NCBI GenBank assembly: GCA_024405115.1 | Contig: JAKSPD010000006.1 | Location: 24,275-88,274, forward strand | Length of the DNA stretch: 64,000 nt | Reading direction: 5' to 3' | Origin: Lachnospiraceae bacterium | Lineage (GTDB): Bacteria; Bacillota; Clostridia; Lachnospirales; Lachnospiraceae | Shown: piece by piece, positions 1,520-63,810 of the stretch | How positions within the stretch are numbered: the first letter of the stretch is position 1 | Layout: the number at the start of each line of letters is the position of its first letter | The notes under the pieces: model-generated | What the model saw: the letters and a program-made list of their open reading frames with translations, nothing else | Databases searched by the model: none | Told to the model about the DNA's origin: nothing | Translations under genes and position numbers: made by a program

Positions 1520-1526
1520 TAGCGTA

Positions 1527-1700
1527 CAAATAAAGAGGTGGAACTCCGGTGAGATTCCGGGACTGTCCCGCAACGGTAATGGCATTTATGCATAAGTCCG
1601 GTCTTCCTGTTGACAACGCCCTGCGACGGATGGGGTGGTCAATACATTGGGAAGAGAGTTTAAGCTCTCTTTTTTGTTACACATCACTGGAAGGTGCCCT
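1527..1700 (+). promoter_or_regulatory. Cobalamin (AdoCbl) riboswitch
   Basis: Contains the conserved core GGTGAGATTCCGGGACTGTCCCGCAACGGTAA (consensus GGUGnnAnUCCnnCnnGnCCCGCnACnGUaA). A B12-box-like segment follows. It sits in the 5' leader of a btuF-like gene and ends in an intrinsic terminator (expression platform). Confidence 0.8.
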
Positions 1701-2710: not shown

Positions 2711-2849
2711 CGAACGGCCTGCAGCATGAGCCTTACAGCTTAAGGACCGCCTTCAAAGTGTAAATCATAAAAATGGCAGGAACGTTTTTAAGGATAAATA
2801 TGGATTAAATAGCAGAGAAACCATATCAATTCTGTAACAGGAACATCAT

Positions 2850-4627: not shown

Positions 4628-4628
4628 A

Positions 4629-6163: not shown

Positions 6164-6222
6164 TCCGCTGCTGAAGGCTGATCAGGTGTCAAAAAGAGGA
6201 GCACATCAACAGAAAGGCTTTA

Positions 6223-17673: not shown

Positions 17674-17811
17674 TTTTAAACCTTCTTTTCTGACTATTGA
17701 ATATATTAATATAATGTACATTTTTTAATACATTTATTATATATATTATTAAATGTTAAAACAATGCCTTGTCAGTATTTTGTTGTATAAAAAATGCACG
17801 GACATATTACA

Positions 17812-32458: not shown

Positions 32459-34081
32459 ATGAAAAAAGTACTTGCATTAGTTCTTGCTTCGGCTATGATT
32501 CTCAGCGTTACCGCATGCGGATCAAAGCCTGCAGAGACCAAGGCAGCTGCCGAAGCAGCTCAGACAGAAGCGGCATCTACTGCGGCTGTTATTGAGAATC
32601 AGGTAGCAACAAAGGAAGTTGCAACAGCAGCAGAAGGCGAAACTCTTAATTATAAGAAGAATATCGTCATTGCTCATCACCAGGCTCCCGTATCAAGAGG
32701 ACCCCAGGATACCAATACCGGTATGCAGAAGCTCCTTGGCTTCATGATCTTCGATTCTCTTTTAAGATTCGATCCCGAGACCAAGACTCTTGTAGGTCGT
32801 CTTGCAGAAGATTACTCACAGGAAAATAACGGACTTATATGGACCTTCCATCTTAAGAAGGGTATCAAGTTCCAGAACGGCGAAGAGCTTACCGCAGATG
32901 ACTGCGTATTCACTTTCGAGCGTGCAAAGGAGCTTGGAAAGAATACCAGTGCATGGGTAGACTGCATCGAGAAGATCGAGACTCCCGATGATTACACTGT
33001 TATCTATACCTTAAACAAGTCGAACATGGACTTCGCATTCCAGATGACCAACTACAGTGCATCCATTATCAACAGAGAAGCCTGCGAAGCTGATCCCGAA
33101 AACGGTATCGGCATCGGTACAGGCGGATGGATGATCGATGAGTTCGTAGCAAACGACTATGTATCATTCAAGAGATTTGATAATTCATGGGTATGGGAAG
33201 CTGAAGGAGTCAACCCCACAGAGACAATGACCATCAAGTACATGGCAGATCAGAACGCACGTATGCTTGGCGTTCAGGCAGGCGACCTTGATATCGGATG
33301 TATCGCCAACAACGCTGAATTCTACAACTACCAGGCTCAGGAAGGTCTTGCACCTGTAGTAGCGGCTTCCTGGTCATGCGACTACATCGGAATGAATGCA
33401 AACTGTGAGTATTTCAAGGACGAGAACGTTCGTAAGGCTGTAGCATATGCGATCAACAAGGACGAGGCTCTTGAGATCATCAACAACGGTTTCGGTCTCA
33501 CATGTAAGTCCATGTGGTGCCCCGATACCATCGGCTACAAGGAGAACTTCGAAGAGAACTACGAGTACAACCTTGAAAAGGCAAAAGAGTATCTTGCAAA
33601 GTCAGCTTATCCGAACGGCTTCTCCTGCAAGCTTACCACCATCAGCTCATATTCACTCTATGCGGAGACCGTACAGGCTCAGCTTGCTGCCATCGGAATC
33701 GACTGCCAGGTTGACCTTACAGACTCACCCGGAATGGGCGAGGGCGGAAAGAACGGTACCTTCGAGATGTATATCTGGAACACCACAATGTCACCTTACG
33801 GCGACAACCTCAGAAAGCTTATCACCTCTGACGGAGCAAGCAACTATGCTCACTTCGCTAACGAGAAGATCGACCAGCTCATGTCTGATGCAGCTGCAGA
33901 AGGCGATGAGGCTAAGAGAGCAGAGCTTTATGAGCAGGTCCAGGACGAGCTGAATGCGGACTGCTACCTTGTTCCCATGTTCTTCGGTTACCTTTCCAAC
34001 CTTACAAGAGACAATGTAGAAGGCTATCAGTTCACTTCTGAAGGTTACTACATGTACAATGTAAGAGCCGTAGAGAAGTAA
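32459..34081 (+). CDS. ABC transporter substrate-binding lipoprotein, family 5 (oligopeptide/dipeptide/nickel type)
   Basis: 540 aa. Lipobox LSVTACGS. SBP_bac_5 architecture. Confidence 0.85.
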   Translation: MKKVLALVLASAMILSVTACGSKPAETKAAAEAAQTEAASTAAVIENQVATKEVATAAEGETLNYKKNIVIAHHQAPVSRGPQDTNTGMQKLLGFMIFDSLLRFDPETKTLVGRLAEDYSQENNGLIWTFHLKKGIKFQNGEELTADDCVFTFERAKELGKNTSAWVDCIEKIETPDDYTVIYTLNKSNMDFAFQMTNYSASIINREACEADPENGIGIGTGGWMIDEFVANDYVSFKRFDNSWVWEAEGVNPTETMTIKYMADQNARMLGVQAGDLDIGCIANNAEFYNYQAQEGLAPVVAASWSCDYIGMNANCEYFKDENVRKAVAYAINKDEALEIINNGFGLTCKSMWCPDTIGYKENFEENYEYNLEKAKEYLAKSAYPNGFSCKLTTISSYSLYAETVQAQLAAIGIDCQVDLTDSPGMGEGGKNGTFEMYIWNTTMSPYGDNLRKLITSDGASNYAHFANEKIDQLMSDAAAEGDEAKRAELYEQVQDELNADCYLVPMFFGYLSNLTRDNVEGYQFTSEGYYMYNVRAVEK

Positions 34082-38121: not shown

Positions 38122-39303
38122 ATGAAAGCAATCGTAAACGGAAAACTTGTTTTTCCTGACAGAATCACGGAAGGCGTCGTTTTAATGGACGGTGACCGGA
38201 TCATTGCTTCCGGGGACTGCCTGGTACCGGAAGGCTGTGAGATCATAGATGCAAAGGGACTTTATGTGGGCCCGGGTCTTTTTGACGAGCATGTTCACGG
38301 CTACAAGCAGTACGGCGAGTGCATCGACGCAAAGGATGACGCCAGGGCTGCGGCGCTTGCACATTTAAAGCACGGCACCACACAGATCACTCCTTCTGCT
38401 GCCTATTCCCTTACGAAAGAGGAATTTATAAGCCAGATCGACCAGTGCAACGAGGCAATGGAAAAGGGAGACACAAACATCGTGGGGATTCACTTTGAGG
38501 GACCCTTTACGAATCCAAAGCATGGGGCAAACTCACATCTGACATGGGAGTTTTCTGAGGAAGCATGTAAAGAAATCTTTGAGCGTGCGGGAAAGAATGT
38601 CCTTCACTGCACCTATGCTCCGGAAATGCCGCACGGTGAGAGAATGGAAGAAGTTCTCAAAAAGTACGGTGTCATCGGTGACATCGGACATACAAGGGCC
38701 GATGAGGCAAGCCTTTTGCGTGCCGTAAAGAACGGAGCACGTATCGTTACGCATCTTTTCGATGCCATGGGTAAGTACGGCTTTGACGAAGCAGGACAGA
38801 TGACTCCGGGCGGACTTTCCCTGCAGGGAACTGTTGCGGACATCCTCCTTGGAATTCCGGACCTTTATTATGAACTGATCTGTGATTCCCGCTGCATCCA
38901 TGTAAATGCATCCAGCATGCGCCTTGCATTAAGGTGTGCCGGAGAAGATTATATCATCTGCATTTCGGATACCACAGGCCGTCCGAATCAGCTGAATCCG
39001 GAGGATTATCCGCCGGAGGATCCGAAGAGCGCAACAGATCTTAACTTCAATCAGCTTGGTCAGCTTTCGGGAAGCCGGCTTTCCGCATCACAGAGTGTCG
39101 CGCACTTCATGAAGGAGACCGGAACCGATGTCAGAGTGGGCTTCAAGGTTGGTTCCGCAAACTCTGCAAAGGCACTGAATCTCTATGACAGCTACGGCTC
39201 CATCGAAGCGGGAAAGTATGCAAACATCATTTTCGTTGATGAAAAGTTTACCGTGAAGAAGGTCATCTTTAAAGGTAACGAACTTTCAGAAATCAGAGAG
39301 TAA
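38122..39303 (+). CDS. NagA-family amidohydrolase, paralog B
   Basis: Motifs GLFDEHVHG, HFEGPF, THLFDAMG and ELICDS. Collinear with 28691-29881. Confidence 0.6.
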   Translation: MKAIVNGKLVFPDRITEGVVLMDGDRIIASGDCLVPEGCEIIDAKGLYVGPGLFDEHVHGYKQYGECIDAKDDARAAALAHLKHGTTQITPSAAYSLTKEEFISQIDQCNEAMEKGDTNIVGIHFEGPFTNPKHGANSHLTWEFSEEACKEIFERAGKNVLHCTYAPEMPHGERMEEVLKKYGVIGDIGHTRADEASLLRAVKNGARIVTHLFDAMGKYGFDEAGQMTPGGLSLQGTVADILLGIPDLYYELICDSRCIHVNASSMRLALRCAGEDYIICISDTTGRPNQLNPEDYPPEDPKSATDLNFNQLGQLSGSRLSASQSVAHFMKETGTDVRVGFKVGSANSAKALNLYDSYGSIEAGKYANIIFVDEKFTVKKVIFKGNELSEIRE

Positions 39304-50407: not shown

Positions 50408-51631
50408 TTATTCAATGATACTGTCAAGATATTTTGAAGTAACGAATAAAGCGGTTGCAAGGTTTTCCTGTTCCGGTTTCAGATGGGCGCGGGTAATATT
50501 CAGCTGGCGGCTGAATTTATTAATGATCTTACTTTTGGCATCAATTATCGCATCTTCAATGATGGGGCCGTCAAGGCCGTCAATATATCCGGAAAGAACG
50601 ATATGGTCAGGATCATAAATGTTGTATATCGTTGTCAGTCCGGCTCCGAGATACTTTGATACACTGCTTAATAACTGATACATGACAAGGCTGCCTTTTT
50701 CCCATGCCTCAAAGACAAGGCTTGGGTTAAGCGGCTTATGTTTCCTGACTACGAGATCGTAAAGGACGTCGTTCTCATCTATGGAATCGAGGGAAGCCCT
50801 GACGCGCTCCAGCATCTGCGTCATACCACAGTAATACTCAAAACAGCCGTTGTTGCCACAGTAGCATTTTGGTCCGAACGGATTAAGCGAGATATGACCG
50901 ACTTCTCCGGAAATGCCGGTTTTTCCACGGATCATTTTGCCATTAAAGAAATTGACCATGCCTATTCCTGTCGAAAGGTTAAGGTAGATTACGTTTTTTT
51001 CAGAACCGTCAAGCCATCTCAGTTCATAAAGCGCCCTTATCCTGGTTATTCCCTCAGCATGAACGGGAAGGTGAAGTGCGGCACTGAGCGGGGTTACAAA
51101 ATTTAAATGCTGCCAGTTAAAGATGGGGGCGTATATTAACTGGTTTGAATCAACCATGCCTCCAATGCAGAGCCCGATGGCACAAAGAAGCTTTCTCACA
51201 TTCTCTGGCTGCCTGTTTATGAAACTCTGCAGATACTCGATTATTTCTTTAATCAGGATTATCTCAGTGTGTTCGGTATTGACATGAAGCATGCAGGGTA
51301 TGGTTTCATTGGAAATGACATTGCCCAGTAGATCCTGAACGGCAAGATCGATGGAATCCTCTATGGTACCGTTCATAATGCACGTTAACACGAGGGCTTT
51401 CTTTTCGTTGAAACGAAGCAGTGTCGTTTTTCTGCCGGCGGCAGAATTTTCCTGTCTGCTTTCATACACAAGTTCTTCCTGGATCAGCTCCGTTACGATA
51501 TTGGTGACGGTTCCTGTACTTAAACCAAGTGCACTGGCCAAGGTAATCCTTGATGTCTCGCCATTGTTGATAAGGTACTCGAGGATGTTTCTTTTGTTTG
51601 TGATTTTTACAGATAAGATAACCGGATTCAT
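50408..51631 (-). CDS. ROK-family transcriptional regulator (NagC/XylR-like)
   Basis: N-terminal wHTH (SRITLASALGLSTGTVTNIVTEL). ROK sugar-kinase-like domain with zinc motif CYCGNNGCFEYYCG. Confidence 0.85.
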   Translation of the reverse strand: MNPVILSVKITNKRNILEYLINNGETSRITLASALGLSTGTVTNIVTELIQEELVYESRQENSAAGRKTTLLRFNEKKALVLTCIMNGTIEDSIDLAVQDLLGNVISNETIPCMLHVNTEHTEIILIKEIIEYLQSFINRQPENVRKLLCAIGLCIGGMVDSNQLIYAPIFNWQHLNFVTPLSAALHLPVHAEGITRIRALYELRWLDGSEKNVIYLNLSTGIGMVNFFNGKMIRGKTGISGEVGHISLNPFGPKCYCGNNGCFEYYCGMTQMLERVRASLDSIDENDVLYDLVVRKHKPLNPSLVFEAWEKGSLVMYQLLSSVSKYLGAGLTTIYNIYDPDHIVLSGYIDGLDGPIIEDAIIDAKSKIINKFSRQLNITRAHLKPEQENLATALFVTSKYLDSIIE

Positions 51632-51685
51632 AAATGTTCTCTATGCAAAAATAAATTTAGGCAATTATAGCACAAAACCAAAAGG

Positions 51686-52417
51686 TCATACAACGGTATT
51701 GATATCAATGTGTTCCCTGAAAGCGGTGGAGTTCCAGGCACCTATGTATCTGTCAACGATATACCCTGCAACAAAAGCCGGACTCCTAAGGACATTTTCC
51801 TCTTTATACTTTCTGAACTCGGAGACCATGTCAAAAACATCGTCAGGAACCATTCGTATTTTTTCCTGCATTTCCGTATCCATGACGCCCGGGTCAATTG
51901 AAACAATGCGGAAGTCCCTGTTCTCCAGCTGGAAAACTTCAAGAAAAGCGTTTATATAGGCTTTTGAGGCGCAGTAGTTGCCCCATCCCTTTAACGGGAA
52001 GTCAGCTGCACCGCTGTCGAGGTTTATGATTCTCAGCCTTATACCATGTTCCTTTACATAGGCTGCAAGCAGGTTTATCAGCACTACCGGCTGATGTATG
52101 TTTGCATCTATCATAGCATCAATCTCTTCACTTCTGTAGTTTCCGACAGGTTTAAGCGGCTCGATGGAAAATGAATTGATGATAAGCGTGACTTCAGATG
52201 TTCCTTCAGGTATCAATTTCAAAATGTCCCTGAAGCTGTCGTTTTCATGAAGCCTGTATCCTGTAATGCCGGTTTCTCCGAAAATACTTCTGAATTTTTC
52301 CTGGTTTCTGTAGACCGCAATCAGACTCAGTTTTTCCAGCTTTTGAATCTCATAAGCCAGATTTCTTCCAAGCCCGCCTGTTGATCCTGTCAGAATGACT
52401 GTCATCTGATTTTTCAT
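51686..52417 (-). CDS. SDR-family NAD(P)-dependent oxidoreductase
   Basis: TGSTGGLGRNLA (TGxxxGxG) and active-site YCASKAY (YxxxK). Confidence 0.8.
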   Translation of the reverse strand: MKNQMTVILTGSTGGLGRNLAYEIQKLEKLSLIAVYRNQEKFRSIFGETGITGYRLHENDSFRDILKLIPEGTSEVTLIINSFSIEPLKPVGNYRSEEIDAMIDANIHQPVVLINLLAAYVKEHGIRLRIINLDSGAADFPLKGWGNYCASKAYINAFLEVFQLENRDFRIVSIDPGVMDTEMQEKIRMVPDDVFDMVSEFRKYKEENVLRSPAFVAGYIVDRYIGAWNSTAFREHIDINTVV

Positions 52418-52422
52418 GGTTC

Positions 52423-53346
52423 TTAAAGTGATTCGGAAAAAACTTCGATGCCGTAGGATTTCAGTATTTCTGCCAGTTCGCTGATATATTCCTTTGACTG
52501 CGGTTCCATTTCAGGAAGAGGATAGTCTCCCAGTGTGTAATCTGACCATATTGTCTTGTTACCGTATTTTGAAGCGGCGAGCTTGTTGTATGGGAGAAGC
52601 TCGCATCTTATTATTTTATTGTTTAAATCATCCCTTACAAACCTTCCAATTGCGTCAATGTCCTCTTTTGAGTCAGTATATCCCGGTATAAGGGGAATCC
52701 TTATTATGATGTTCGCGTCATTTTGTGTAAGGAATTTCAGGTTTTCAAGAATCAGCGTGTTATCCATGCCCGTGTATTCCTTATGAAGGGCCGGGTCAAT
52801 CTTCTTAATGTCGTACAGGTAAAGATCGGCATAAGGAAGAATACGTTCAAAACTGCTTTTCGGAACGGCGCCGCAGGTGTCGATTGCGGAACGGATTCCG
52901 TTTTCCTTTAACAGCCTGACCGTTTCCGTAAGGAAATCAATGTGCAGCATGCATTCTCCACCGGAGAAGGTAACGCCTCCCTTTGATGAATCAAAGAAAA
53001 TTCTTTCGTCTTTTACGATTTTAAGGACATCCTCTGGAGTATAGTAAGTGCTTCCAAATTGCCTTGCCTGGGCAAAGCAGGTTTTTACACATTTGCCGCA
53101 CATCTCACAGGACGCCTTCAGGAGCTGGAGATTCCTGTCGAGTTTTCCGCACACTTCCACACACTTCCCGCATCCGATACATTTCATTTGGGTAAAGGTA
53201 ATCACCGTTTCGTCTTTTTGGGATTCCGGATTCTGACACCATAAACATCTTAACGGGCATCCCATAAGAAAAAAGGTAGTCCTTATGCCCGGACCGTCAT
53301 GAACGGCATAATGCTTCACATCAAAAATTCTTACTTTATTCTCCAT
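52423..53346 (-). CDS. Glycyl-radical enzyme activating enzyme (radical SAM)
   Basis: N-terminal HDGPGIRTTFFLMGCPLRCLWCQNPES (CX3CX2C) plus two ferredoxin-like clusters CIGCGKCVEVC and CEMCGKCVKTC. Confidence 0.9.
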   Translation of the reverse strand: MENKVRIFDVKHYAVHDGPGIRTTFFLMGCPLRCLWCQNPESQKDETVITFTQMKCIGCGKCVEVCGKLDRNLQLLKASCEMCGKCVKTCFAQARQFGSTYYTPEDVLKIVKDERIFFDSSKGGVTFSGGECMLHIDFLTETVRLLKENGIRSAIDTCGAVPKSSFERILPYADLYLYDIKKIDPALHKEYTGMDNTLILENLKFLTQNDANIIIRIPLIPGYTDSKEDIDAIGRFVRDDLNNKIIRCELLPYNKLAASKYGNKTIWSDYTLGDYPLPEMEPQSKEYISELAEILKSYGIEVFSESL

Positions 53347-53426
53347 AACAGATCCTTTTTAAAATAACAACCCTGCAGCACCATTATAACGGACTGCAGG
53401 GCAATTAATAAAGATAAAATAACAGA

Positions 53427-55664
53427 TTAGAAACTCAGTGTTGATCTCTGGATGATATGATCCTGCCAGTGCTTTGCAACCTGTGTAAAGTATGTTGAGA
53501 ATCCCCAGATTCTTACAATAAGGTCTCTGTAGTTTTCAGGATGTTTCTGAGCATCAAGGAGAACCTTGTTATCCAGAACGTTGATCTGAGCCTGTTCACC
53601 ACCAAGCTGGCAATATGTCTGCATAAGAGTGATGAACTTATCTCTTCCTTCCTGTGTACTGAGTGCTGAAGGATGGAACTTCATATCAAGTACCGATCCG
53701 CCGGCGCATTTGCTTACATCAAGCTTTCCGCAGGAAAGGACAACAGCGGTAGGTCCATTATGGTCAGCGCCCATCATCGGTGAAAGGTTGTCAGCATAGA
53801 ACTGTTTAGCCTTTCTTCCGTCTGCGGATGCACCGAGGATTCTTGCTGCATATACATAACCGGTAGCAGAGGAGATTCTTGCACGGTATGTCTGTCCGGC
53901 AGCATTACGATGCTTGGTTACTTCCTGTACATAGTATTCAAGGATGTCATTTGCAATCTTGTCAACTTCAGAATCATTGTTGCCAAATTTCGGGAATTCA
54001 TTCAGGATTCTCTGTCTGAGATCTTCATGTCCTTCCCAGTTGTCAAGAAGAATGTCATTGAACTCTCTCAGGGTATACTCTTTATCCTCGTATACGAGCT
54101 TCTTAATGGCGTAAAGTGAGTCAGCTGCATTGGAAAGGGCACCGAGCTGAAAGTCCGTTTCATTATAGATTGCTCCCCAATCGTCAAAGTCGCGACCATT
54201 TTCAATGGGGCCTTCCATCATGGAAGAATAGAAGGGTGAGGGAGAAAGCATGGAACGGTTCACATAGCTTGTTACCATATCAATGTAATGCTTCATCTGC
54301 ACCTTATATGCATTAAAGAGCTTAGAATATGTGTCGAACCACTCGGGTTCACCTGTAGGAATTCCCCAACGGTCTCCGATCAGTCCCATTGCCGGAAGGC
54401 TTCCGGGATTGCCAAGAGCAAATTTACCATTGTTCATTGCCCACTCAAGTGATCTGAGGGCACATACACCGCCGACATTTCTGTTGAGAGCTTTTCCCTG
54501 AACGGTCATTTCCCAGCAGCCGGAAGCAGCATAATCTCTTGCATCTTCAATCGTATATTCCGGGTGCGCCATGAAAGCGGGGATGATGACATCGTCATTT
54601 TCATATGTCGGGAATCCCATTCCCAGACTGTTGAGATATGCAGCCTTTTCCCAGATCTCGCGGGGAGTCTTTGAGCTGACACGGAGATGTACCTTGGGAT
54701 CGGTCACCTTCATGTCGCACTTTGCATCAAGGATCATCATGGTAATATCGTTGTATGTGGGTTCTCCGGTAAGAGGATCACATCCACCGATAGTGATTGA
54801 CTGGCCGGTATCACTGTTGATACGGATGTCTTCGCCGTGGGTTCTGTCCACTTCATAGTTCAGCTTCATGAAGAAAGCTTCGAGAATTTCTAATGCAAAT
54901 TCCTTTGTGAGTGTGCCATTCTCAATATCTTTCTTATAGAACGGATACAGAGTGATATCTACACGTCCAAGAGGAACAAGATAACCGCCTTCTGTCCAGA
55001 TCAGGAACTGGATGAAATACATTAACTGAACAGCCTGCCAGTATGTCTGCGGTGCACCGTTCTGAAGAACGTTCATATTCTCAGCCATGGTAAGGAGTTC
55101 TTCTTTGCGCTCACCCTCAGCTGCGGCTGCCTGTTCACGGCAGAGATCCTCATAACGCTTCATTGCCTTGAGGCAGGCCTTATTGGAAATGAGGACAGAC
55201 TCATAATAAGTCTTTTTATCACAGTCGTCCGTCTCGGCCAGTCTCTTTTCAACGTCGGCGATCAGAGCCGGAATACCCATGGGAACTACCTTGTAGTAAG
55301 CGGGAATGGAGCTGTCATTCAGTCCAAAACCTCTGTCATCCTGACCAAGGTTGAAAGCGTTGTCAAACATACTTGAGTACATTCCATATTCACCAACCTC
55401 AAAGTTATGGTTGCCCCACATGATTTCTTCATGTGTAACATACTTCGGAAGCTTATAAAGTGTTTTTCCTCCGCAGATAAGGTCTCCTTCTAATAAGAAG
55501 ACAGGCATTTTCTCAAGAGCCAGATCAAAAGCAAGAGCTTTTCTTATTGCAAATGGCCTCTTTTCGTTTTCTTCCAAAATAGAGAGGTGAAGGTCTTCAA
55601 CTCTGAACTTTTTATGTTCATCAGCGAAGAACATTTCTCTTAAAGCATTTATTCTATCAGTCAT
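53427..55664 (-). CDS. Glycyl radical enzyme of the PFL2/glycerol-dehydratase/CutC/HypD clade, substrate unknown
   Basis: 745 aa from ATG 55664 (RBS TGGAGG). Thiyl-Cys loop SGCWEMTVQGK, compared with GCVEP in known dehydratases. C-terminal glycine-radical motif VRIWGFSTYF, a variant of RVAGYSAFF. Confidence 0.8.
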   Translation of the reverse strand: MTDRINALREMFFADEHKKFRVEDLHLSILEENEKRPFAIRKALAFDLALEKMPVFLLEGDLICGGKTLYKLPKYVTHEEIMWGNHNFEVGEYGMYSSMFDNAFNLGQDDRGFGLNDSSIPAYYKVVPMGIPALIADVEKRLAETDDCDKKTYYESVLISNKACLKAMKRYEDLCREQAAAAEGERKEELLTMAENMNVLQNGAPQTYWQAVQLMYFIQFLIWTEGGYLVPLGRVDITLYPFYKKDIENGTLTKEFALEILEAFFMKLNYEVDRTHGEDIRINSDTGQSITIGGCDPLTGEPTYNDITMMILDAKCDMKVTDPKVHLRVSSKTPREIWEKAAYLNSLGMGFPTYENDDVIIPAFMAHPEYTIEDARDYAASGCWEMTVQGKALNRNVGGVCALRSLEWAMNNGKFALGNPGSLPAMGLIGDRWGIPTGEPEWFDTYSKLFNAYKVQMKHYIDMVTSYVNRSMLSPSPFYSSMMEGPIENGRDFDDWGAIYNETDFQLGALSNAADSLYAIKKLVYEDKEYTLREFNDILLDNWEGHEDLRQRILNEFPKFGNNDSEVDKIANDILEYYVQEVTKHRNAAGQTYRARISSATGYVYAARILGASADGRKAKQFYADNLSPMMGADHNGPTAVVLSCGKLDVSKCAGGSVLDMKFHPSALSTQEGRDKFITLMQTYCQLGGEQAQINVLDNKVLLDAQKHPENYRDLIVRIWGFSTYFTQVAKHWQDHIIQRSTLSF

Positions 55665-55916
55665 AGCTGAGCCTCCATATAATTTAATGAATAAAATATA
55701 TGACCATTTCATAAAAAAGTCAAGCAACTTAAGCGTTATTTGTGTTGTGAAAAATGCACAAATATTGCCCCGCTTTTTCTACATACAGAAGTCACAATAG
55801 AATAAACAGCGTTATTGACATGAAATGAATTCGGAATTATTATTTAATCATTAAATTAAGCTGTGAGCTTAGTTTGTGCCAAATTTAAAAATTGACACAT
55901 AGAAAGGAGTTGAAAC

Positions 55917-56609
55917 ATGAAAAAGATTATTGATATCACTGGCATCATTGATAAAGGAATGTGGAATTACGAGCCTCCGTTCCCGGACATTGAGATCAAG
56001 CCGCTTCCGCCCATTCCGTGGCTTGGCGGAAAAACAGTTGGATGCGAGATCTTTGAAGGCCTTCACAGCCAGTCAGGAACCTATCTTGAGACTCCCGCAC
56101 ATAACTTTGGAAACAATAACGGAAGTTATGCGCTGATCGAGGTTCCCGTAGATAAGATCTATGAGATTCCCTGTGTTGTACTCAATATTGGACCTTTTGA
56201 GATGAATCCTGAAGAGGGCCGTCATCCGATTACTGTGGAAGAACTTAAGGCATGTCCCAATGCTGACCAGATTCGTGAAGGCGATGCTGTAATCGTTGGA
56301 ACAGGCTGGGGCAAGTACTGGTTCCATCCGGATAATCTGAAATATGCTCCGTACTTCACCACAGATGCAATGGAGTGGATCATTGCTCAGAAGCCTTTCC
56401 TTATCGGCGGTGATTCTGCTAGATGGGATTGCCTGGAAGATCCGCAGGCATTCTGGGATGATTTCTATGGCAATGATATTCTGATGGGTGGACCGTTTGT
56501 GGATCTTGAGAAGGTTACAGCTCCCCGCTGCAAGCTGACGATCCTTCCTCCCAAGTTCCCGATCACAAGTTGCGCACCTTCAAGAGCTCTCATCATTGAA
56601 GAGGACTAA
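55917..56609 (+). CDS. Cyclase-family protein (kynurenine-formamidase-like, PF04199)
   Basis: 230 aa. Metal-binding-like motif LHSQSGTYLETPAHNF (H..GTH.D.P.H pattern). Confidence 0.55.
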   Translation: MKKIIDITGIIDKGMWNYEPPFPDIEIKPLPPIPWLGGKTVGCEIFEGLHSQSGTYLETPAHNFGNNNGSYALIEVPVDKIYEIPCVVLNIGPFEMNPEEGRHPITVEELKACPNADQIREGDAVIVGTGWGKYWFHPDNLKYAPYFTTDAMEWIIAQKPFLIGGDSARWDCLEDPQAFWDDFYGNDILMGGPFVDLEKVTAPRCKLTILPPKFPITSCAPSRALIIEED

Positions 56610-56651: not shown

Positions 56652-58208
56652 ATGAAAAAGTTCACAAAGCTTGCAGCTGTGCTTATGGCTATGGCTATGG
56701 TTATCGGACTCGTTGGATGTTCAGATGGCGCAGCACCCGCAGCAACAGAAGCACCCGCAGCAACAGAAGCAGCAACAGAGGCAGCTAAGGAAAGCAAGAC
56801 CCTCACAATTGTAAACGGTAATGACCTTGATGAGTTCAACCCGTTCACGAACCAGCAGACAGCGTACATCACATTCTTTGCATTTAACTGCTATGAGCCG
56901 TTATTCCATCTGAATGAGAACATGGAATATGAAATGGACCTTGCAACAAATGTTGAGCAGAAGGATGATACCACAATTGTTATTACTACCAGAGAGAATG
57001 TAAAATTCCATAATGGTCAGACATTTGGTCCCGAAGATGTAGTATATACAATTCAGAAGACACTGGATCCTGCAGTAAGCGCTTGGAGAATCACACAGTA
57101 CGAAATCGTTGATTCTATTGAAGCCACAGGTGCAAACGAAGTTACCATTAAGCTTAAGAATGCATCACCCGCATTCCTTGATAACCTTGCTTATACTCCT
57201 ATCGTCTGCAAGGAAGATGATCCCGCACAGATGGCTCAGAAGGTTAACGGAACCGGTGCTTACAAGTTTGTAAGCTGGACTCCCAACGACAGCATTAATC
57301 TTGAAAAGTTTGCAGATTACTGGGATGCAGATAAGATTAACTTTGATGCCCTTGTAATCAAGCCCATTCCGGATGCATCAGTAGCTATCACAAACCTTGA
57401 AACAGGAGCTGTAGATCTTTACAACAGCATTACTGTGGAAGCAGCTGACACCATTGAGAGCAAGGCTGGTCTTAAGGTTATTTCAGCTAAGGCATCTAAT
57501 ACAGTTGACCTTTTCGAAATTGGACGTCATAACTTTGAGCCGTTCAGCGATCCTGAAGTATTAAGAGCAATGTTCCTTGCACTTGACAGACAGACCATCA
57601 ACGATTCTGTATATGGCGGCAAGGGTAAGCCCACCACATCAATGTATCCTAGCGCAACAAAGTATCATATTGATTCCGATAATGAAGGATATGATATTGA
57701 AAAGGCTAAGGAAGTTCTTGCAGCAACACCTTATAAGGATGGATTTGAGTTTGATCTTGAAGTTCTTGCAGGATACTCAGCAGCAGAGCAGGAAGCTATC
57801 ATCTGGCAGGCAGACCTTGCTAAGCTTGGAATCAAGATGAATGTTAAGGTTGAAGAGATGTCAGTATGGCTTGATGCATATCTTAACAGAACATATCAGA
57901 TGATCTGGAACTCTTATGGCATGGTAGGTTCAGATCCCGCAACATTCAACTCAATCATTATTTCACAGCTCTTTGATTACCAGGCAAAGGATATTCCTGA
58001 ACTCGAAGATCTCGTAGCAGCAGGCGCATCAACAAGTGATGATGCAGTACGTAAGGAAGCATACGAGAAGATTCAGAAGATCGTTGCTGAGTACCGTCCT
58101 GTTTGCCCGTTCGTGGAGGCTCCCCTTCTTTACGGCGCAACAGAGTCACTTACAGGTCTTGAAATCAATGGTATGGGACATATGTTCCTCAAGAACGTTG
58201 ACAAGTAA
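56652..58208 (+). CDS. ABC transporter substrate-binding lipoprotein, family 5 (peptide/nickel type)
   Basis: Signal peptide with lipobox LVGCSDG, then an Ala/Thr/Glu-rich linker and the SBP_bac_5 fold. Confidence 0.85.
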   Translation: MKKFTKLAAVLMAMAMVIGLVGCSDGAAPAATEAPAATEAATEAAKESKTLTIVNGNDLDEFNPFTNQQTAYITFFAFNCYEPLFHLNENMEYEMDLATNVEQKDDTTIVITTRENVKFHNGQTFGPEDVVYTIQKTLDPAVSAWRITQYEIVDSIEATGANEVTIKLKNASPAFLDNLAYTPIVCKEDDPAQMAQKVNGTGAYKFVSWTPNDSINLEKFADYWDADKINFDALVIKPIPDASVAITNLETGAVDLYNSITVEAADTIESKAGLKVISAKASNTVDLFEIGRHNFEPFSDPEVLRAMFLALDRQTINDSVYGGKGKPTTSMYPSATKYHIDSDNEGYDIEKAKEVLAATPYKDGFEFDLEVLAGYSAAEQEAIIWQADLAKLGIKMNVKVEEMSVWLDAYLNRTYQMIWNSYGMVGSDPATFNSIIISQLFDYQAKDIPELEDLVAAGASTSDDAVRKEAYEKIQKIVAEYRPVCPFVEAPLLYGATESLTGLEINGMGHMFLKNVDK

Positions 58209-58283: not shown

Positions 58284-59258
58284 GTGCCCGTTTTGCGAAG
58301 CGCAAATGTCATCAAGTATATCTTAAAGCGCCTTTTAATGGCTGTATTCGTACTGTTGCTTGTTACGGTAATAGTATTCGTGGCAGTCAGACTGGCGCCA
58401 GGCGATCCCGTCCAGGCTAAGATAGGCCCGCACGGAGACTATTCCCCGGAAAATGTTGCCAGGGTAAGTGCTGCACTTGGACTGGATAAACCTATTTATG
58501 TTCAGTATCTTGTATGGGTTAGGGACTGCCTTAAGGGCAGCTTTGGCTATTCATTAATAAATGGTGCGGACGTGGGACAGCTCATAGCCCAGAAGATTCC
58601 TGTAAGTATGGAACTCATTCTTGTTGCCATGGTACTGGCCCTGCTTATTTCGATTCCGCTTGGTGTTTATTCCGCACTAAAAAAGGGTTCTGTTTTTGAC
58701 CAGGTAGTCAGTGTCATTTCCACAGGACTTCTTGCAGTACCTACATTCTGTGTAGGATTGCTTCTTTTAATTCTGATATCCGTTAAATTAAGGCTTCTTC
58801 CTTCCAGCGGATACGTTCCGTTCAGTGAAAATCCCGGACAGAATCTGAAGTTGTTAATTATGCCTGCTCTCACGCTTGGACTTGCTGAACAGGCTTCACT
58901 TACCAGATATATACGTTCAGAAACAATAGAAGTATTAAACTCAAACTATATCAGGACAGCCCGTGCCAAAGGTCTTCCTGTAAAAGTGGTTAATTTCAAG
59001 CATGCGTTCAAAAACGTACTCGTAACGGTTATTACGCTCGTGGGTATGAGATTTGCGCAGCTTTTCGGCGGTACTGTCATTATTGAACAGCTGTTTGGCT
59101 GGTCAGGACTCGGATGGTTTACATATCAGTCAATCATCAGCCGTGACTATCCCGCCGTTCAGGCATCGGTTCTGCTGGTCGCCGTGATATTCGTTGTGGT
59201 CAACATGCTGGTTGACATTCTTTATGCGGTTATTGACCCGCGTATCAAACTTGAGTGA
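58284..59258 (+). CDS. ABC transporter permease (DppB-like)
   Basis: BPD_transp_1 with RTARAKGLPVKVVNFKHAFKNVLV. The start codon is uncertain. Confidence 0.8.
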   Translation: MPVLRSANVIKYILKRLLMAVFVLLLVTVIVFVAVRLAPGDPVQAKIGPHGDYSPENVARVSAALGLDKPIYVQYLVWVRDCLKGSFGYSLINGADVGQLIAQKIPVSMELILVAMVLALLISIPLGVYSALKKGSVFDQVVSVISTGLLAVPTFCVGLLLLILISVKLRLLPSSGYVPFSENPGQNLKLLIMPALTLGLAEQASLTRYIRSETIEVLNSNYIRTARAKGLPVKVVNFKHAFKNVLVTVITLVGMRFAQLFGGTVIIEQLFGWSGLGWFTYQSIISRDYPAVQASVLLVAVIFVVVNMLVDILYAVIDPRIKLE

Positions 59259-59271
59259 CGGGGGTGAAGAT

Positions 59272-60090
59272 ATGAAGATTCGTAAAGTTAAATTCACGAC
59301 CGTATTCGCACTTGCAATATTGTTTGTAGTTCTTTTAATGACATTTTTCCCGTCTATTTTTACGAGCTATGATCCTCTTGCCGTGGAACCAAAGATCAAG
59401 CTTCAGGGACCGAGCCCGGAGCATTTCCTGGGCGTTGACGAGTACGGAAGGGATATATGGTGCAGACTTGTCTATGGTGCACGTCCAAGTATAGAGGTTG
59501 GATTTGGTTCGGCACTCCTTGCCATGCTGGTGGGAGTTCCGCTTGGACTTATCGCAGGTTATTTCGGCGGATGGGTTGACAACGTGATCATGAGGATTAT
59601 GGACGCGTTCCTTTCATTCCCGTCAGTTCTTCTTGCAATTCTGCTCATTACGGTATTTGACCCGTCTGTTAAGACGCTTATATTTACTATCACGATTGTA
59701 AGTTTCCCGGCGTACGGACGAATAGTTCGAAGCTCCGTACTTTCGTTAAAGGAGAGGGATTTCACTGAAGCGGCCAGGGCATCGGGTGCAAAGCCGTCCT
59801 ACATAATGTTCAGGACGATCCTTCCTAACTGTGCTTCCGGCATAATTGTCCAGTTCTCACTGTTTGCGGCTTCAGCAATCCTTATCGAGGCCAGCATGAG
59901 CTTCCTCGGACTTGGAATTCAGCCGCCCACACCGGCATGGGGCTCAATGCTTTCATATGCCAAGGCTTATATCGGTAAATCAATGCTGTACATTCTTACG
60001 CCCACGATCATGATTTTCCTTACAGTATTAAGCATTAACCTTTTAGGTGATGCGTTAAGGGAATGGCTTGATCCCACAAGGCTTAAGTAA
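59272..60090 (+). CDS. ABC transporter permease (DppC-like)
   Basis: Start ATG 59272 (RBS GGGGGTGAAG). EAA-loop region AARASGAKPSYIMFRTILPN. Confidence 0.8.
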   Translation: MKIRKVKFTTVFALAILFVVLLMTFFPSIFTSYDPLAVEPKIKLQGPSPEHFLGVDEYGRDIWCRLVYGARPSIEVGFGSALLAMLVGVPLGLIAGYFGGWVDNVIMRIMDAFLSFPSVLLAILLITVFDPSVKTLIFTITIVSFPAYGRIVRSSVLSLKERDFTEAARASGAKPSYIMFRTILPNCASGIIVQFSLFAASAILIEASMSFLGLGIQPPTPAWGSMLSYAKAYIGKSMLYILTPTIMIFLTVLSINLLGDALREWLDPTRLK

Positions 60091-60100
60091 AGGAGGAAAT

Positions 60101-61075
60101 ATGTCAGAAAAAGTTCTTGAAGTAAAAAATCTTGAGACACATTTCTTCTCAAGCCGTGGCGTGGCAAAGGCCGTTGACAGGGTAAGCTACAGTGTTTCAA
60201 AAGGAGAGATACTCGGAGTGGTTGGAGAGTCGGGTTGCGGTAAATCCGTAACGGCACTTTCCATACTTCAGCTGATTCAGTCACCTCCGGGAAAAATCGT
60301 TGGAGGGGAAATACTGCTTGACGGCAGGGACCTTCTGAAGCTTTCAAAAAAGGAAATGGAAGCAGTCCGTGGTAATAAGATTTCCATGATCTTCCAGGAA
60401 CCCATGACGTCACTTAACCCGCTTCTTACGGTGGGTGACCAGATCATGGAACCGATCAGGCTTCACAGGGGCCTTGGGAAGAAGGAAGCCAAGACGGAGG
60501 CAATCCGTATGCTTGAAGCCGTGGGAATTCCAAATGCTGAAAAACGTTTCCATGAGTATCCAAACTCCATGTCCGGCGGCATGAGGCAGAGGGTAATGAT
60601 AGCCATGGCGCTTTCATGCCGTCCTGAGGTGCTTATCGCAGATGAACCCACCACCGCCCTTGACGTGACAATACAGGCGCAGATACTTGACCTGATGCTG
60701 AAGCTCAGGGATGAAACCGGAACTGCAATAATAATGATTACCCATGACCTTGGAGTAGTGGCTGAAATGTGTGACAGGGCTGCAGTTATGTACTGTGGTT
60801 CAGTTGTTGAGCAGGGACCGGTAAAGGAAATCTTCAAAAATCCTGTTCATCCTTACACCAAGGGACTTATTGCATCTATTCCAAAGTTATCCGATGAACA
60901 TGAAAAGCTTTTCAATATCCGTGGAGCTGTTCCCAATCTCCGTAATCTTCCCGAAGGCTGCCGGTTTGCCGACAGATGTGATTACTGTATGGAAAAGTGC
61001 AGGAAAGCCATACCGGAAATTACCACGGTATCTGAAGGTCATGAGGTCAGATGCTTTCTGAATGGGGGTGAATGA
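60101..61075 (+). CDS. ABC transporter ATP-binding protein (DppD-like)
   Basis: Start ATG 60101 (RBS AAGGAGG). Walker A GESGCGKSV, signature MSGGMRQR, Walker B LIADEPTTALD. Confidence 0.9.
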   Translation: MSEKVLEVKNLETHFFSSRGVAKAVDRVSYSVSKGEILGVVGESGCGKSVTALSILQLIQSPPGKIVGGEILLDGRDLLKLSKKEMEAVRGNKISMIFQEPMTSLNPLLTVGDQIMEPIRLHRGLGKKEAKTEAIRMLEAVGIPNAEKRFHEYPNSMSGGMRQRVMIAMALSCRPEVLIADEPTTALDVTIQAQILDLMLKLRDETGTAIIMITHDLGVVAEMCDRAAVMYCGSVVEQGPVKEIFKNPVHPYTKGLIASIPKLSDEHEKLFNIRGAVPNLRNLPEGCRFADRCDYCMEKCRKAIPEITTVSEGHEVRCFLNGGE

Positions 61076-61076
61076 A

Positions 61077-62066
61077 ATGCCTGAGAAAAAAGTACTGATA
61101 CATGCAGATGGTGTAAAAAAGTATTTTCCTTCTTCAGAGGGATTTAAAACGAAATATGTAAAAGCTGTTGACAATGTTTCGCTTGATGTTTACAAAGGAG
61201 AGACATTAGGACTGGTAGGCGAGTCCGGATGTGGAAAATCGACATTTGGAAGATGCCTTTTGAGGCTTTTTGACATTACCGGAGGAACAATAGAGTTTAA
61301 CGGAAAGGATATTTATGCAATGTCCCCCAACGACCTTATTAAAGAGCGAAGGAACATGCAGCTTATTTTCCAGGACCCGCTCGCCTCCCTTAACCCGAGA
61401 CTGCGCATCAGGCAGATTGTTGAGGAACCTCTTCATTTCCATAAGGAACAGCTGGATTTTGATATCAACGATAAGGCAAAGGTCCGCGAAGTTGTTGATA
61501 AGACCCTTCGTGATGTCGGACTTGATCCGGATCTCTGCGCTGACAGGTATCCGCATGAGTTTTCAGGCGGACAGCAGCAGAGGGTTGGAATCGCGAGGGC
61601 ACTTATTTTAAAGCCCGATTTCATCGTATGTGATGAGGCGGTATCGGCGTTAGACGTATCCGTTCAGGCACAGGTGCTTAATCTGCTTGAGGAACTCAAA
61701 AAGGAATATGACCTTACTTACCTGTTCATATCGCATAACCTTTCCGTAATCAAGCATGTATGCGACAGGATTGCCGTAATGTATCTGGGACAGGTGGTGG
61801 AGCTTGCAGACCGTGACGTACTGTTCAGCAATCCGCAGCATCCATACACCAAGGCGCTCATTTCAGCCATTCCCATTCCGGACCCTGAAAAGAAGAGAAA
61901 CAGGATTCTCCTCGAAGGAGACATTCCCAGTCCAATGAACCCGCCTTCAGGCTGCCGCTTCCATACGAGATGCTACGAGTGCGGAGAAAACTGCGGGTGT
62001 TCGGAGCCCTCCATGATTGAGGTAGAACCCGGACATTTCGTTGCATGCCATAAGTTTGACAAATAA
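61077..62066 (+). CDS. ABC transporter ATP-binding protein (DppF-like)
   Basis: Walker A GESGCGKST, signature FSGGQQQR, Walker B IVCDEAVSALD. Confidence 0.9.
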   Translation: MPEKKVLIHADGVKKYFPSSEGFKTKYVKAVDNVSLDVYKGETLGLVGESGCGKSTFGRCLLRLFDITGGTIEFNGKDIYAMSPNDLIKERRNMQLIFQDPLASLNPRLRIRQIVEEPLHFHKEQLDFDINDKAKVREVVDKTLRDVGLDPDLCADRYPHEFSGGQQQRVGIARALILKPDFIVCDEAVSALDVSVQAQVLNLLEELKKEYDLTYLFISHNLSVIKHVCDRIAVMYLGQVVELADRDVLFSNPQHPYTKALISAIPIPDPEKKRNRILLEGDIPSPMNPPSGCRFHTRCYECGENCGCSEPSMIEVEPGHFVACHKFDK

Positions 62067-62077
62067 GAAAAAATGTA

Positions 62078-63331
62078 ATGGACAAAAAAGAGCTGCTTCA
62101 ATTCATTGATGACCGTAAGGATGATCTTTTTAAGACCCTTTGTGATCTTATAAAGATTGAGTCAGTAAACTACGGGTCTCATGGAGACGAAAAGGAAATT
62201 GCGGAATACCTTGGTGCCGAATATGAAAAGTACGGTTTTAAGGGAGAAGTATATTCACCTTTAAGTATTGAGGGAATCGAGAACCATCCTGATTACTATC
62301 CCGGAAGACACCTTGAAAACAGGTACAACGCTTCCGTGACTGTTCCCGGAACATGCCATGACAAGCGGCTCATGCTGGCGGCACACATTGATACGGAAAT
62401 ACTTGGCGACCGCTCTACATGGACGATGGAACCGCTTTGCGGGGACATTCATGACGGAAGTATCTGGGGAAGAGGGGCAGGTGACGACAAGTCAGGAGTG
62501 GCTGTTGCATGGTTCCTTATCAGGATTTTTAAGGAGGCAGGCATAGAGCTTCCTTATGACCTTGTATTCACGGCATACTGTGACGAGGAAGGTGGTGGCG
62601 GAAACGGCACTCTTGCAGCCTGTCTAAAGTATCCAAGTGACGATGTCCTTAACCTTGACTGCGAACATATGCAGATAGTGTCAGGCGGCGCCGGCGGTGC
62701 CTGCCTGGCGGCAGATTTTGTGACTAAGGAACCCGTAGACACAAGTGAAATCATGCTTACCGCATTCAGCATTTATGCCGAGGAGATGGCTAAATTCAGG
62801 CAGCGCAGGCATGACGAGCTTATGGAATACCCGAGATTTGCGAGAAGCACCATTCCGGATGAGGCATATCGTATCCAGGACATAATGGCCGGTGGAACGC
62901 TTTCCCTTAACAGGGGAAGAATCAACTCATGCTTCTATACCACAAAGAGCGAGAAGGAAATCAATAAGGAGTTTGCGGAAATAACAGACACCCTTAACGA
63001 ACGCCTTGATTCTTATGGAGTAATTTTCGAAGGTTTCAGGTTCACTACAAGGTTCTTCAGGTTTGCAGAGGTACCCGAGGATAACACGTCGGTTGAACTT
63101 TTAAAGAAGGCATACAGGGAAGTTACCGGAAGGGAACAGGAGGATGTAGGTTCCTGTCTTTCAGACCTTACCATATATATGCACAACTGCACCAAAAACT
63201 CGGTATGCTTCGGAGTCGGCGGAGGCTTTGGAGAATACGGTGGGGCACATCAGCCTGATGAACATATCGGATGCGATGAATTACTTGAGTTTGCAAAGAT
63301 CCTTGCTTCCTTCATGATGGATTACAGGTAA
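62078..63331 (+). CDS. M20-family metallopeptidase (ArgE/DapE/dipeptidase-like)
   Basis: 417 aa. Metal-binding blocks AAHIDTE and GRGAGDDKSG, catalytic DEEGGG, and a C-terminal H-containing block. Confidence 0.7.
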   Translation: MDKKELLQFIDDRKDDLFKTLCDLIKIESVNYGSHGDEKEIAEYLGAEYEKYGFKGEVYSPLSIEGIENHPDYYPGRHLENRYNASVTVPGTCHDKRLMLAAHIDTEILGDRSTWTMEPLCGDIHDGSIWGRGAGDDKSGVAVAWFLIRIFKEAGIELPYDLVFTAYCDEEGGGGNGTLAACLKYPSDDVLNLDCEHMQIVSGGAGGACLAADFVTKEPVDTSEIMLTAFSIYAEEMAKFRQRRHDELMEYPRFARSTIPDEAYRIQDIMAGGTLSLNRGRINSCFYTTKSEKEINKEFAEITDTLNERLDSYGVIFEGFRFTTRFFRFAEVPEDNTSVELLKKAYREVTGREQEDVGSCLSDLTIYMHNCTKNSVCFGVGGGFGEYGGAHQPDEHIGCDELLEFAKILASFMMDYR

Positions 63332-63339
63332 ATAACGAA

Positions 63340-63810
63340 ATGCGCTTTATTCCAGGGAAAATAGAAGATTACGACGTCTGTGCCGATATCTACAGGAATA
63401 CCATGCTTATGGAAAGATATTCCGAGGGGGAGGACCGGGAAGAGGTTCTTAAGGATGCCCTTATTAAATATCTGGTAGAGGATAAGACAATTCTGGCGGT
63501 GGATGACAGCGGAAGGGTTGCAGGATTCCTTATGTATTCATATAAAGGAATGTACGGGTCATTACCATATATAGCGGAACTTGGCGTGGATGAGGCGTTA
63601 CGCGGGAAGGGCATCGGAACCGCACTTCTGAGGGAGTTTATCAGAAGGTGCGTGGAAAAAGATGCACCCGTCTGTTTTATCAGCGTGTCTTCCTTTAATC
63701 CAGGCGCAAAGGCCCTTTATGAAAAGGAAGGCTTCAGGGAACTGACAGTGATTAAGGATTTCCTGAAAGAAGGCATAGATGAATGCCTCATGATGAAGAG
63801 ATTAAAATAA
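63340..63810 (+). CDS. GNAT-family N-acetyltransferase
   Basis: 156 aa. Acetyl-CoA-binding motif LRGKGIGTALL. Confidence 0.8.
   Translation: MRFIPGKIEDYDVCADIYRNTMLMERYSEGEDREEVLKDALIKYLVEDKTILAVDDSGRVAGFLMYSYKGMYGSLPYIAELGVDEALRGKGIGTALLREFIRRCVEKDAPVCFISVSSFNPGAKALYEKEGFRELTVIKDFLKEGIDECLMMKRLK

Follow-up and report, generated by a model that had tools for sequence, protein, structure and literature searches.

The stretch of DNA analysed here, referred to as the window, comprises 64,000 nucleotides of Lachnospiraceae contig JAKSPD010000006.1 and carries on its minus strand a run of four genes built around a glycyl radical enzyme (GRE). The GRE, of 745 amino acids, is encoded at 53427–55664 and is followed by its activating radical S-adenosylmethionine (SAM) enzyme (307 amino acids, 52423–53346), a classical short-chain dehydrogenase/reductase (SDR; 243 amino acids, 51686–52417), and a ROK-family transcriptional regulator (407 amino acids, 50408–51631). 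All four open reading frames (ORFs) are intact. Their intergenic gaps of 80, 5, and 54 nt and their placement on one strand indicate that the genes are likely to be co-transcribed, as an earlier note on this DNA had proposed for the GRE and its activase; the ORF layout given in that note also matches ours exactly in its coordinates. As described below, the GRE belongs to a clade with a sharp boundary to every characterised GRE, here called the CWE/xWG clade after the Trp residues found in its catalytic Cys loop and directly before its radical Gly.

The start of the GRE is assigned to an ATG at 55664, which is preceded by a GGAGG located 8 nt upstream and corresponds to the Met at which homologues also begin. 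Pfam analysis identified a PFL-like domain (PF02901, E=5e-131) and a Gly_radical domain (PF01228, E=4.5e-28). Translation places the Cys loop G382-C383-W384-E385 (GCWE) at 54510–54521 and the glycyl radical motif R718-I-W720-G721-F-S-T-Y-F (RIWGFSTYF) at 53487–53513, both on the minus strand and both where the earlier note had put them. The loop is a CXE motif with Trp at the X position. The barrel and Gly_radical domains, the radical motif, the catalytic Cys, and the adjacent activase together assign the protein to the PFL-like glycyl radical enzyme superfamily. The activase contains a Radical_SAM domain with the motif CPLRCLWC (CX3CX2C) and two further Cys-rich ferredoxin-like motifs; with TIGR02494, the generic GRE-activase model (cut-off 174), it scores 303 bits, and it falls short of every specific NCBIfam equivalog.

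The SDR (adh_short) begins 5 nt past the activase stop codon and retains the TGxxxGxG and YxxxK motifs. In NCBIfam it comes closest to benzil-reductase- and sepiapterin-reductase-type models, scoring below their cut-offs. The ROK protein is considered a regulator rather than a kinase because a winged helix-turn-helix (HTH) domain (HTH_24/MarR) precedes its ROK domain. It shares this architecture with the repressors NagC and Mlc but scores far below the cut-offs of both NCBIfam models (138 bits against 650 for NagC, 128 bits against 530 for Mlc), and so has the generic HTH and ROK architecture without being an equivalog of either.

The GRE operon is separated by a control region (55665–55916) from a divergent unit on the plus strand. 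By consensus matching, the region contains sigma-70-like promoter sites for the GRE operon (55723–55695, minus strand) and for the divergent operon (55815–55843, plus strand). Between these promoter-like sites is a perfect 8-bp inverted repeat, TATTTGTG-N12-CACAAATA, at 55737–55764, which may act as the operator for the ROK regulator. The divergent unit opens with a cyclase-fold (PF04199) protein of 230 amino acids (55917–56609). It continues with a family-5 (Opp/Dpp/Nik-type) substrate-binding protein of 518 amino acids (SBP_bac_5, 56652–58208), two ATP-binding cassette (ABC) permeases (BPD_transp_1) spanning 58284–60090, and two Opp-type ABC ATPases (ABC_tran plus oligo_HPY) spanning 60068–62066. 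The ORF calls for the permeases are 58284–59258 and 59194–60090, the true start of the second being probably later than called, and those for the ATPases are 60068–61075 and 61062–62066. An M20 metallohydrolase of the ArgE/DapE deacylase type (Peptidase_M20, 417 amino acids, 62078–63331) and a GNAT N-acetyltransferase (Acetyltransf_1, 156 amino acids, 63340–63810) complete the unit. Pfam thus bears out the list of neighbours in the earlier note, which had named a cyclase-family protein, a family-5 ABC importer, an M20 peptidase, and a GNAT protein.

To delimit the GRE clade, we searched a database of 5.8 billion proteins and counted the matches as sequence clusters. The clade consists of about 76 clusters of 726–750 amino acids with 40–91% identity to the window GRE. 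After these the bit score falls from 576 to 398, the next matches being other GREs. All 76 clusters carry C-W-E together with R-[IVL]-W-G, whereas the next matches mostly carry C-V-E and R-V-A-G; among the 73 full-length clade members aligned, 70 have Trp immediately before the radical Gly. The window GRE reaches no NCBIfam cut-off, scoring 456 bits against 678 for TIGR01774 (the PFL2/glycerol dehydratase subfamily), 409 against 1100 for the HypD model, 370 against 1050 for the CutC model, and 116 against 994 for the pyruvate formate-lyase (PFL) model TIGR01255.

Reference GREs were taken from annotated records: glycerol dehydratase (GD) of C. butyricum, for which the residue numbering was verified, CutC of K. 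pneumoniae, a HypD named as such by PGAP, and YbiW and PflD of E. coli. The window GRE is 28–34% identical to these five proteins at 300–318 bits, whereas they score 376–623 bits among themselves. Since it scores lower against the references than they do against each other, we place the clade outside the known eliminase/isomerase group. An AlphaFold model of the GRE (mean predicted local distance difference test score, pLDDT, of 89.3) resembles propanediol dehydratase (PD), GD, HypD, CutC, HplG, YbiW, and PflD about equally, with template modelling (TM) scores of 0.83–0.87 at 24–29% identity. HypD is among its best matches in both sequence and fold.

The characterised PFL-like GREs comprise PFL/TdcE, four decarboxylases, the X-succinate synthases, GD, PD, HpfG, HypD, HpyG, HpzG, CutC, IslA/IseG, HpsG, HplG, YbiW, and PflD, and whole clades still await assignment according to a June 2026 review (PMC13450708). 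No enzyme matching the CWE/xWG clade is found in the enumeration of that review (PMC13450708), nor is the clade described in the other literature that we searched, which included GRE papers from 2024 to 2026. The claim of the earlier note that the enzyme lies outside the characterised GRE signatures is therefore upheld by the broad failure of the equivalog models, the 28–34% identity to references, and its absence from the review. High-identity clustering within a characterised family, which that note had named as the result that would speak against it, was not observed. PFL function itself is rejected because the adjacent Cys-Cys pair is missing, the corresponding residues being G382 and C383; the score with the PFL model is also far below its cut-off. 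From its sequence, the window GRE is very probably a functional GRE whose specificity is as yet unassigned.

To examine the active site, the window GRE was aligned with the five references and conservation was scored over the 73 full-length clade members, following a suggestion in the earlier note that active-site residues be mapped onto CutC, GD, and HypD. C383, W384, E385, and G721 are invariant (73 of 73), as are Q108, D109, R111, W223, E225, R234, D236, H276, D285, G287, Y500, R617, and R718. C383 and E385 align with C433 and E435 of GD, and G721 aligns with G763 of GD; loss of the catalytic Cys or Gly upon alignment, the other outcome that the note had considered fatal to its proposal, thus did not occur. 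The reference Cys loops read GCVEP (GD, CutC), GCVET (HypD), GCIET (YbiW), and GCVEL (PflD), and the reference radical motifs read RVAGYSAFF (YbiW, PflD), RVAGYSAYF (CutC), and RVAGYSAQF (GD), so that the GCVEP and RVAGYSAFF used for comparison in the note were essentially right. A Glu two residues past the catalytic Cys, as present in the window GRE, is kept by all GRE eliminases and isomerases (PMC13450708).

Outside of this catalytic core, the residues that contact substrate in GD, CutC, and HypD are replaced. The second acid/base (His164 in GD, Asp216 in CutC, His160 in HypD, His165 in YbiW, His156 in PflD) corresponds to L115, a position occupied by Leu, Ile, Arg, Val, or Thr within the clade. 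The position of GD His281 and HypD Asp278 is Tyr or Phe (Tyr228 in the window GRE), and GD Ser282 and Asp447 are replaced by Leu229 and Asn396. GD Tyr339, which is Phe in CutC and Phe340 in HypD, is replaced by the invariant Gly287 within the sequence S-D-T-G-Q; the exchange of a bulky aromatic residue for an invariant Gly, also found in PflD, implies a roomier pocket. About 45 residues of the N-terminal region are deleted relative to the reference GREs. Arg residues are prominent among the conserved positions. R395 is nearly invariant (66 of 73), with YbiW having an Arg, R453, at the same position, and the active-site strand equivalent to GD 638–645 reads Y-R-A-R-I-S-S-A-T, in which R594 is conserved in 72 and R596 in 71 of the 73 members. 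R596 is missing only in P0075 and P0076, and their locus type, as seen for P0075 (L028), lacks the cyclase-fold gene. We infer from these features a CXE-type mechanism acting on a larger substrate that would bear an anionic group.

The same features allow one to ask whether the clade has merely diverged while performing the function of GD/PD, CutC, HypD, YbiW/PflD, or a C-S lyase. The window GRE shares with GD, PD, HypD, and CutC the ten-stranded barrel, the Gly motif, the Cys, the CXE Glu, and an adjacent activase with auxiliary clusters. It differs from them in having Trp at the X position of CXE, where they have Val or Ile, and Trp before the Gly, where they have Ala, as well as in the N-terminal deletion, the non-conserved second acid/base, and the absence from the window of microcompartment and aldehyde-processing genes. 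The diol-binding residues His164, Ser282, and Asp447 of GD/PD have become Leu115, Leu229, and Asn396; Asp278, His160, and Phe340 of HypD have become Tyr228, Leu115, and Gly287, with no proC in the window; and the G-D loop Asp of CutC is replaced, with no bacterial microcompartment genes in the window. YbiW and PflD, which cleave 1,5-anhydro-hexitol-6-phosphates in 'anhydroglycolysis', are the only characterised sugar-acting GREs and are of the CXE type (PMC13450708). They resemble the window GRE in their carbohydrate-type context, PflD in having the Gly equivalent to Gly287 and YbiW in having the Arg equivalent to R395, but their identity to it is 28–32%, the His of their G-H loop is lost, and no phosphotransferase system (PTS), sugar phosphatase, or Fsa aldolase is found nearby. 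From the absence of these genes, and of any conserved kinase, a non-phosphorylated substrate is considered more likely.

The comparison with the C-S lyases depends on a constellation of Gln and Arg residues. IslA, IseG, and HpsG anchor their anionic sulfonate with two Arg and one Gln (PMC13450708), and the CWE/xWG clade has Q108, R111, R594, and R596 in what, judged by numbering alone, would be the corresponding loop and strand. These lyases are the weakest eliminase matches of the GRE model in fold (TM scores of 0.79–0.81). Because none of the loci encodes a sulfite reductase, a sulfite exporter, or another sulfonate-related protein, we set aside a sulfonate substrate, which the Arg/Gln constellation had prompted us to consider. 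Taken together, the failure of all equivalog models by more than two-fold, the replacement of the substrate contacts of GD, CutC, and HypD, and a context lacking a microcompartment shell, aldehyde dehydrogenase, pyrroline-5-carboxylate (P5C) reductase, PTS, Fsa aldolase, and sulfite reductase or exporter make it very improbable that the clade performs one of these known functions, in spite of the shared fold and CXE motif.

We compared gene order across 26 genome loci and further metagenome contigs, individual loci being designated by L numbers. Wherever the flanking sequence of a related locus suffices, the activase gene adjoins that of the GRE. Almost all loci contain the cyclase-fold gene, among them those of Firmicutes, Spirochaetes, and Planctomycetota; it is divergent in most Firmicutes, downstream of the GRE in a group whose GREs are 52% identical to that of the window, and in Planctomycetota immediately upstream of the GRE gene, 2–6 nt away and in the same orientation. 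An orthologue of the ROK regulator with 41–60% identity occupies the same position in Firmicute loci. The window SDR, in contrast to the cyclase-fold gene, has no homologue in any related locus, including those of relatives with an 88% identical GRE, in which the order is cyclase | GRE-activase-ROK, in some cases followed by a NagB-like gene. The SDR is thus a lineage-specific addition and is ruled out as a conserved pathway enzyme. The conserved core unit consists of the GRE, the activase, and the cyclase-fold protein, and spans both divergent transcription units.

This comparison across homologues, which the earlier note had recommended, changes the picture that the note had drawn. The operon as listed there is not the functional unit, because the cyclase-fold gene is conserved and the SDR is not; the cyclase-fold gene, which the note had listed only among the neighbours, is second to the activase alone in how well its linkage to the GRE is conserved. 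The idea that the SDR is a partner of the GRE fails in so far as conservation is concerned, and survives in qualified form with respect to reduction of a carbonyl product, as oxidoreductases recur in other lineages. Spirochaete loci contain a non-orthologous SDR overlapping the GRE stop codon together with a URO-D protein, L030 has an aldo-keto reductase next to the GRE, and L028 has three GFO_IDH_MocA proteins and a xylose-isomerase-like TIM barrel. Such repeated, independent recruitment of oxidoreductases fits either a carbonyl product or an alcohol precursor. Two further observations were made during this comparison. In Planctomycetota L018–L021, a bare cyclase-GRE-activase cassette, with neither transporter nor regulator, lies between endonuclease V/KsgA genes and anti-sigma-type genes, and in these GREs Tyr rather than Trp precedes the radical Gly. 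In L035, a 701-amino-acid GRE with its own activase and an AraC regulator (15569–17674) is encoded about 3 kb downstream of a close relative of the window GRE.

A profile alignment of the cyclase-fold protein sets its sequence Q52-x-G-T-Y56-x-E58-T-x-x-H62 opposite the HTGTHVDAPLH of kynurenine formamidases and related hydrolases; the metal motif HxGTHxDxPxH has been remodelled to QxGTYxETxxH. No solved relative was found by single-sequence search, a profile being needed to match kynurenine formamidase and isatin hydrolase (E~1e-11). A structural model (pLDDT 93.8) has the same fold as these enzymes, with TM scores of 0.72–0.80 to isatin hydrolase and KynB at 17–20% identity. The hydrolase label is uncertain because most of the metal-ligand motif is missing. 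All 38 subfamily members aligned share the Q-x-G-T-Y-x-E-T-x-x-H motif, and D166 and R223 are strictly invariant as well.

A protein of this kind might be a non-catalytic accessory subunit of the GRE that modulates activation or access, like the small subunits of HPAD and benzylsuccinate synthase. Apart from the activase, it alone among the partners is conserved across phyla, its gene directly precedes that of the GRE in Planctomycetota, and its canonical metal ligands are replaced. But its subfamily, with 251 clusters, is about three times the size of the GRE clade, its gene heads the opposite transcription unit in Firmicutes, and the invariant polar residues (Q, Y, E, H, D166, and R223) look like an active site. 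The subfamily, motif included, also occurs in the absence of any GRE: in L038 with an AAC(3)-like acetyltransferase and a TIM-barrel protein, and in L040 with Amidohydro_2, an FGGY kinase, TIM, the NagB-like protein, and DeoR. Further, it accompanies an unrelated GRE in L039. On the basis of its occurrence without a GRE we dropped a GRE-specific subunit as the leading view of the cyclase-fold protein, and consider the accessory role quite improbable. The protein is most likely a separate enzyme acting on the substrate or the product, and it is the occurrence without a GRE that leads us to read it as a pathway enzyme. The contexts lacking the CWE/xWG GRE are consistently carbohydrate- and amine-flavoured. 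In L039, the unrelated GRE has 707 amino acids (4850–6973) and a Cys loop, HACNWPD, without Glu after the Cys, and the cluster also encodes ROK, an AAC(3)-like acetyltransferase, a creatininase, two DegT aminotransferases, and GFO_IDH_MocA.

A second recurrent partner is a NagB-like protein of 315–323 amino acids encoded in at least nine distinct loci (L002–7, L012, L013, L017, L036). It has no Pfam hit; by profile it matches glucosamine-6-phosphate deaminases at E=1.3e-9, indicative of remote homology, and it is about 50 residues longer than NagB. The commonest context of the NagB-like family includes a DHDPS-type lyase, URO-D, DUF386, an SDR, and an aldo-keto reductase, which amounts to an acidic-sugar theme. 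Examples from the family, whose members have 315–330 amino acids, are encoded in L030 (12026–12991), L033 (221–1183), L029 (11582–12529), L036 (14629–15600), and L040 (7823–8815).

Transport and regulatory genes vary more than the core. The transporters switch among SBP_bac_5, SBP_bac_1, and Peripla_BP_4 types across loci, with Opp-type systems in the window and in L001–4, L006, L014, and L037, CUT2 systems in L005 and L030, and CUT1 systems in Spirochaete loci. The regulators are of the ROK, LacI, GntR-PBP, and GntR-FCD types. An orthologue of the family-5 binding protein is present in L001–4, L006, L008, L014, and L037; the permeases are conserved together with its gene, and the Opp-type ATPases have orthologues 62–78% identical in related loci. 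Homologues of the M20 protein with 36–37% identity occur in L002, L007, and L013, and a GNAT protein is found at the equivalent position in the Christensenella locus. The M20 protein matches TIGR01910 at 118 bits, below cut-off, and has no solved relative at E<=1e-10 in a sequence search of the structure database. The closest solved relatives of the binding protein are 5u4o (an uncharacterised protein), GsiB/YliB, and AgaA (entry 6hlx). AgaA binds the opine agropinic acid, and the relationship is weakly compatible with a sugar-amino-acid conjugate as the ligand of the window protein.

These transport and processing genes raise the alternative that the substrate is a hydroxy-amino acid or modified amino acid derived from peptides, in a pathway resembling that of HypD: an Opp system would take up the peptide, the M20 protein would release the amino acid, and the GRE would dehydrate or cleave it, with Arg binding the carboxylate. 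Such a pathway agrees with the presence of SBP_bac_5, Opp-type ATPases, M20, and GNAT beside the GRE, both in the window and in a number of Firmicute loci, and with the ranking of HypD among the best sequence and fold matches. R594 and R596 are also located, by alignment, on the strand bearing the Thr with which HypD contacts the carboxylate. The signature residues of HypD, though, are replaced (His160 by a variable residue, Asp278 by Tyr, Phe340 by Gly), the HypD model is matched at well under half of its cut-off (409 against 1100), and neither P5C reductase nor another amino-acid enzyme is conserved nearby. Also at odds with it are the NagB-like partner and the use by the same clade, in other lineages, of CUT1/CUT2 transporters and of LacI, GntR-PBP, and ROK regulators. 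We consider a HypD-like pathway unlikely. The hint of a sugar that the earlier note had taken from the ROK regulator is strengthened by independent evidence: related loci use CUT1 or CUT2 transporters and LacI or GntR-PBP regulators, and they encode NagB-like proteins, sugar oxidoreductases, or xylose-isomerase-like TIM barrels.

With moderate confidence, we propose that the two divergent sides of the locus form one catabolic module, with a functional GRE of an uncharacterised clade at its centre, for the anaerobic breakdown of an acidic amino-sugar-like substrate. As to the parts of this proposal, eliminase- or isomerase-type chemistry of the GRE is the more secure and is considered probable, and derivation of the substrate from carbohydrate is evenly poised. 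The activase would install a radical on Gly721, from which it would be relayed to Cys383; the resulting thiyl radical would abstract a hydrogen at a hydroxyl-bearing carbon of the substrate while Glu385 takes the proton from that hydroxyl; and a beta-leaving group (OH, OR, or amine) would then depart in the manner of CXE 1,2-eliminases and isomerases to give a carbonyl product, which in this genome the SDR of the operon probably reduces. The likely substrate is an anionic, nitrogen-containing carbohydrate derivative, either an acidic amino sugar or a conjugate of a sugar with an amino acid. The Opp-type ABC system of the divergent unit would take it up, the M20 deacylase and the GNAT protein would trim it, and the ROK repressor would sense it, with the inverted repeat at 55737–55764 as a possible binding site.

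Several points weigh against an acidic amino-sugar module. A peptide-type transporter and an M20 'peptidase' are found in the window and in most Firmicute loci, and these fit a peptide or amino acid as well. The NagB-like gene, on which the amino-sugar argument is based, was searched for within the 64-kb window and not found; the window ends 190 bp past the GNAT gene, and the NagB-like gene may lie beyond this end or may be absent from the genome. The NagB-like family is in addition a large one, comprising 1812 clusters with many other contexts. The SDR, being restricted to this lineage, could be a passenger. The chemistry may differ from that of the known eliminases, given the loss of the second general acid/base. 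Finally, the putative anion binding by the Arg pair depends on alignment position and on the numbering-based analogy to IslA.

A more specific form of the proposal, which we put forward tentatively and consider rather doubtful, is that the clade performs a new radical cleavage of a C-N or C-O bond in an acidic amino sugar or sugar-amino-acid conjugate. Candidate substrates would then be sialic-, nonulosonic-, and muramic-type acids, and glycated amino acids of the Amadori, Heyns, and opine types. The GRE would work alongside a cyclase-fold enzyme without a canonical metal site and often a NagB-like deaminase or isomerase. Together they would give gut Clostridia, Christensenella, Spirochaetes, and Planctomycetota a new anaerobic route for such compounds that does not depend on phosphorylation.

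So far, every new assignment of a GRE has uncovered how an abundant compound from host or diet is processed anaerobically, as with choline, hydroxyproline, isethionate, and 1,5-anhydroglucitol. The hosts of the CWE/xWG clade include gut Clostridia, among them the cultured Christensenella intestinihominis AF73-05CM02 (L002), as well as environmental anaerobes. Its two diagnostic Trp substitutions flank the radical-relay residues and, together with the lost second acid/base, suggest that the substrate and the details of the chemistry are likely to be new. Since many GRE clades await assignment, the clade is better viewed as a well-delimited target than as a categorical surprise; the set of partners (cyclase-fold protein, NagB-like protein, deacylase, binding protein, and ROK regulator) provides a testable entry to its function.

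Elsewhere in the window, a 741-amino-acid ORF at 15496–17721 (minus strand) has only C-terminal choline-binding repeats as recognisable features. Although close to the GRE in length, it is not another GRE, and its product is probably anchored to the cell wall. An AdoCbl (cobalamin) riboswitch at 1524–1644 (plus strand), scoring 59.7 bits and above the Rfam gathering threshold, lies upstream of a plus-strand run of ORFs at 1778–5651. A second Opp-type cluster, part of a further uptake and amidohydrolase unit, is formed by an SBP_bac_5 gene (32459–34081) and four ORFs of permease or ATPase size extending to 37984. It is followed by an Amidohydro_1 gene (38122–39303) and has next to it a divergent gene for a 713-amino-acid AraC-type protein (29998–32139).

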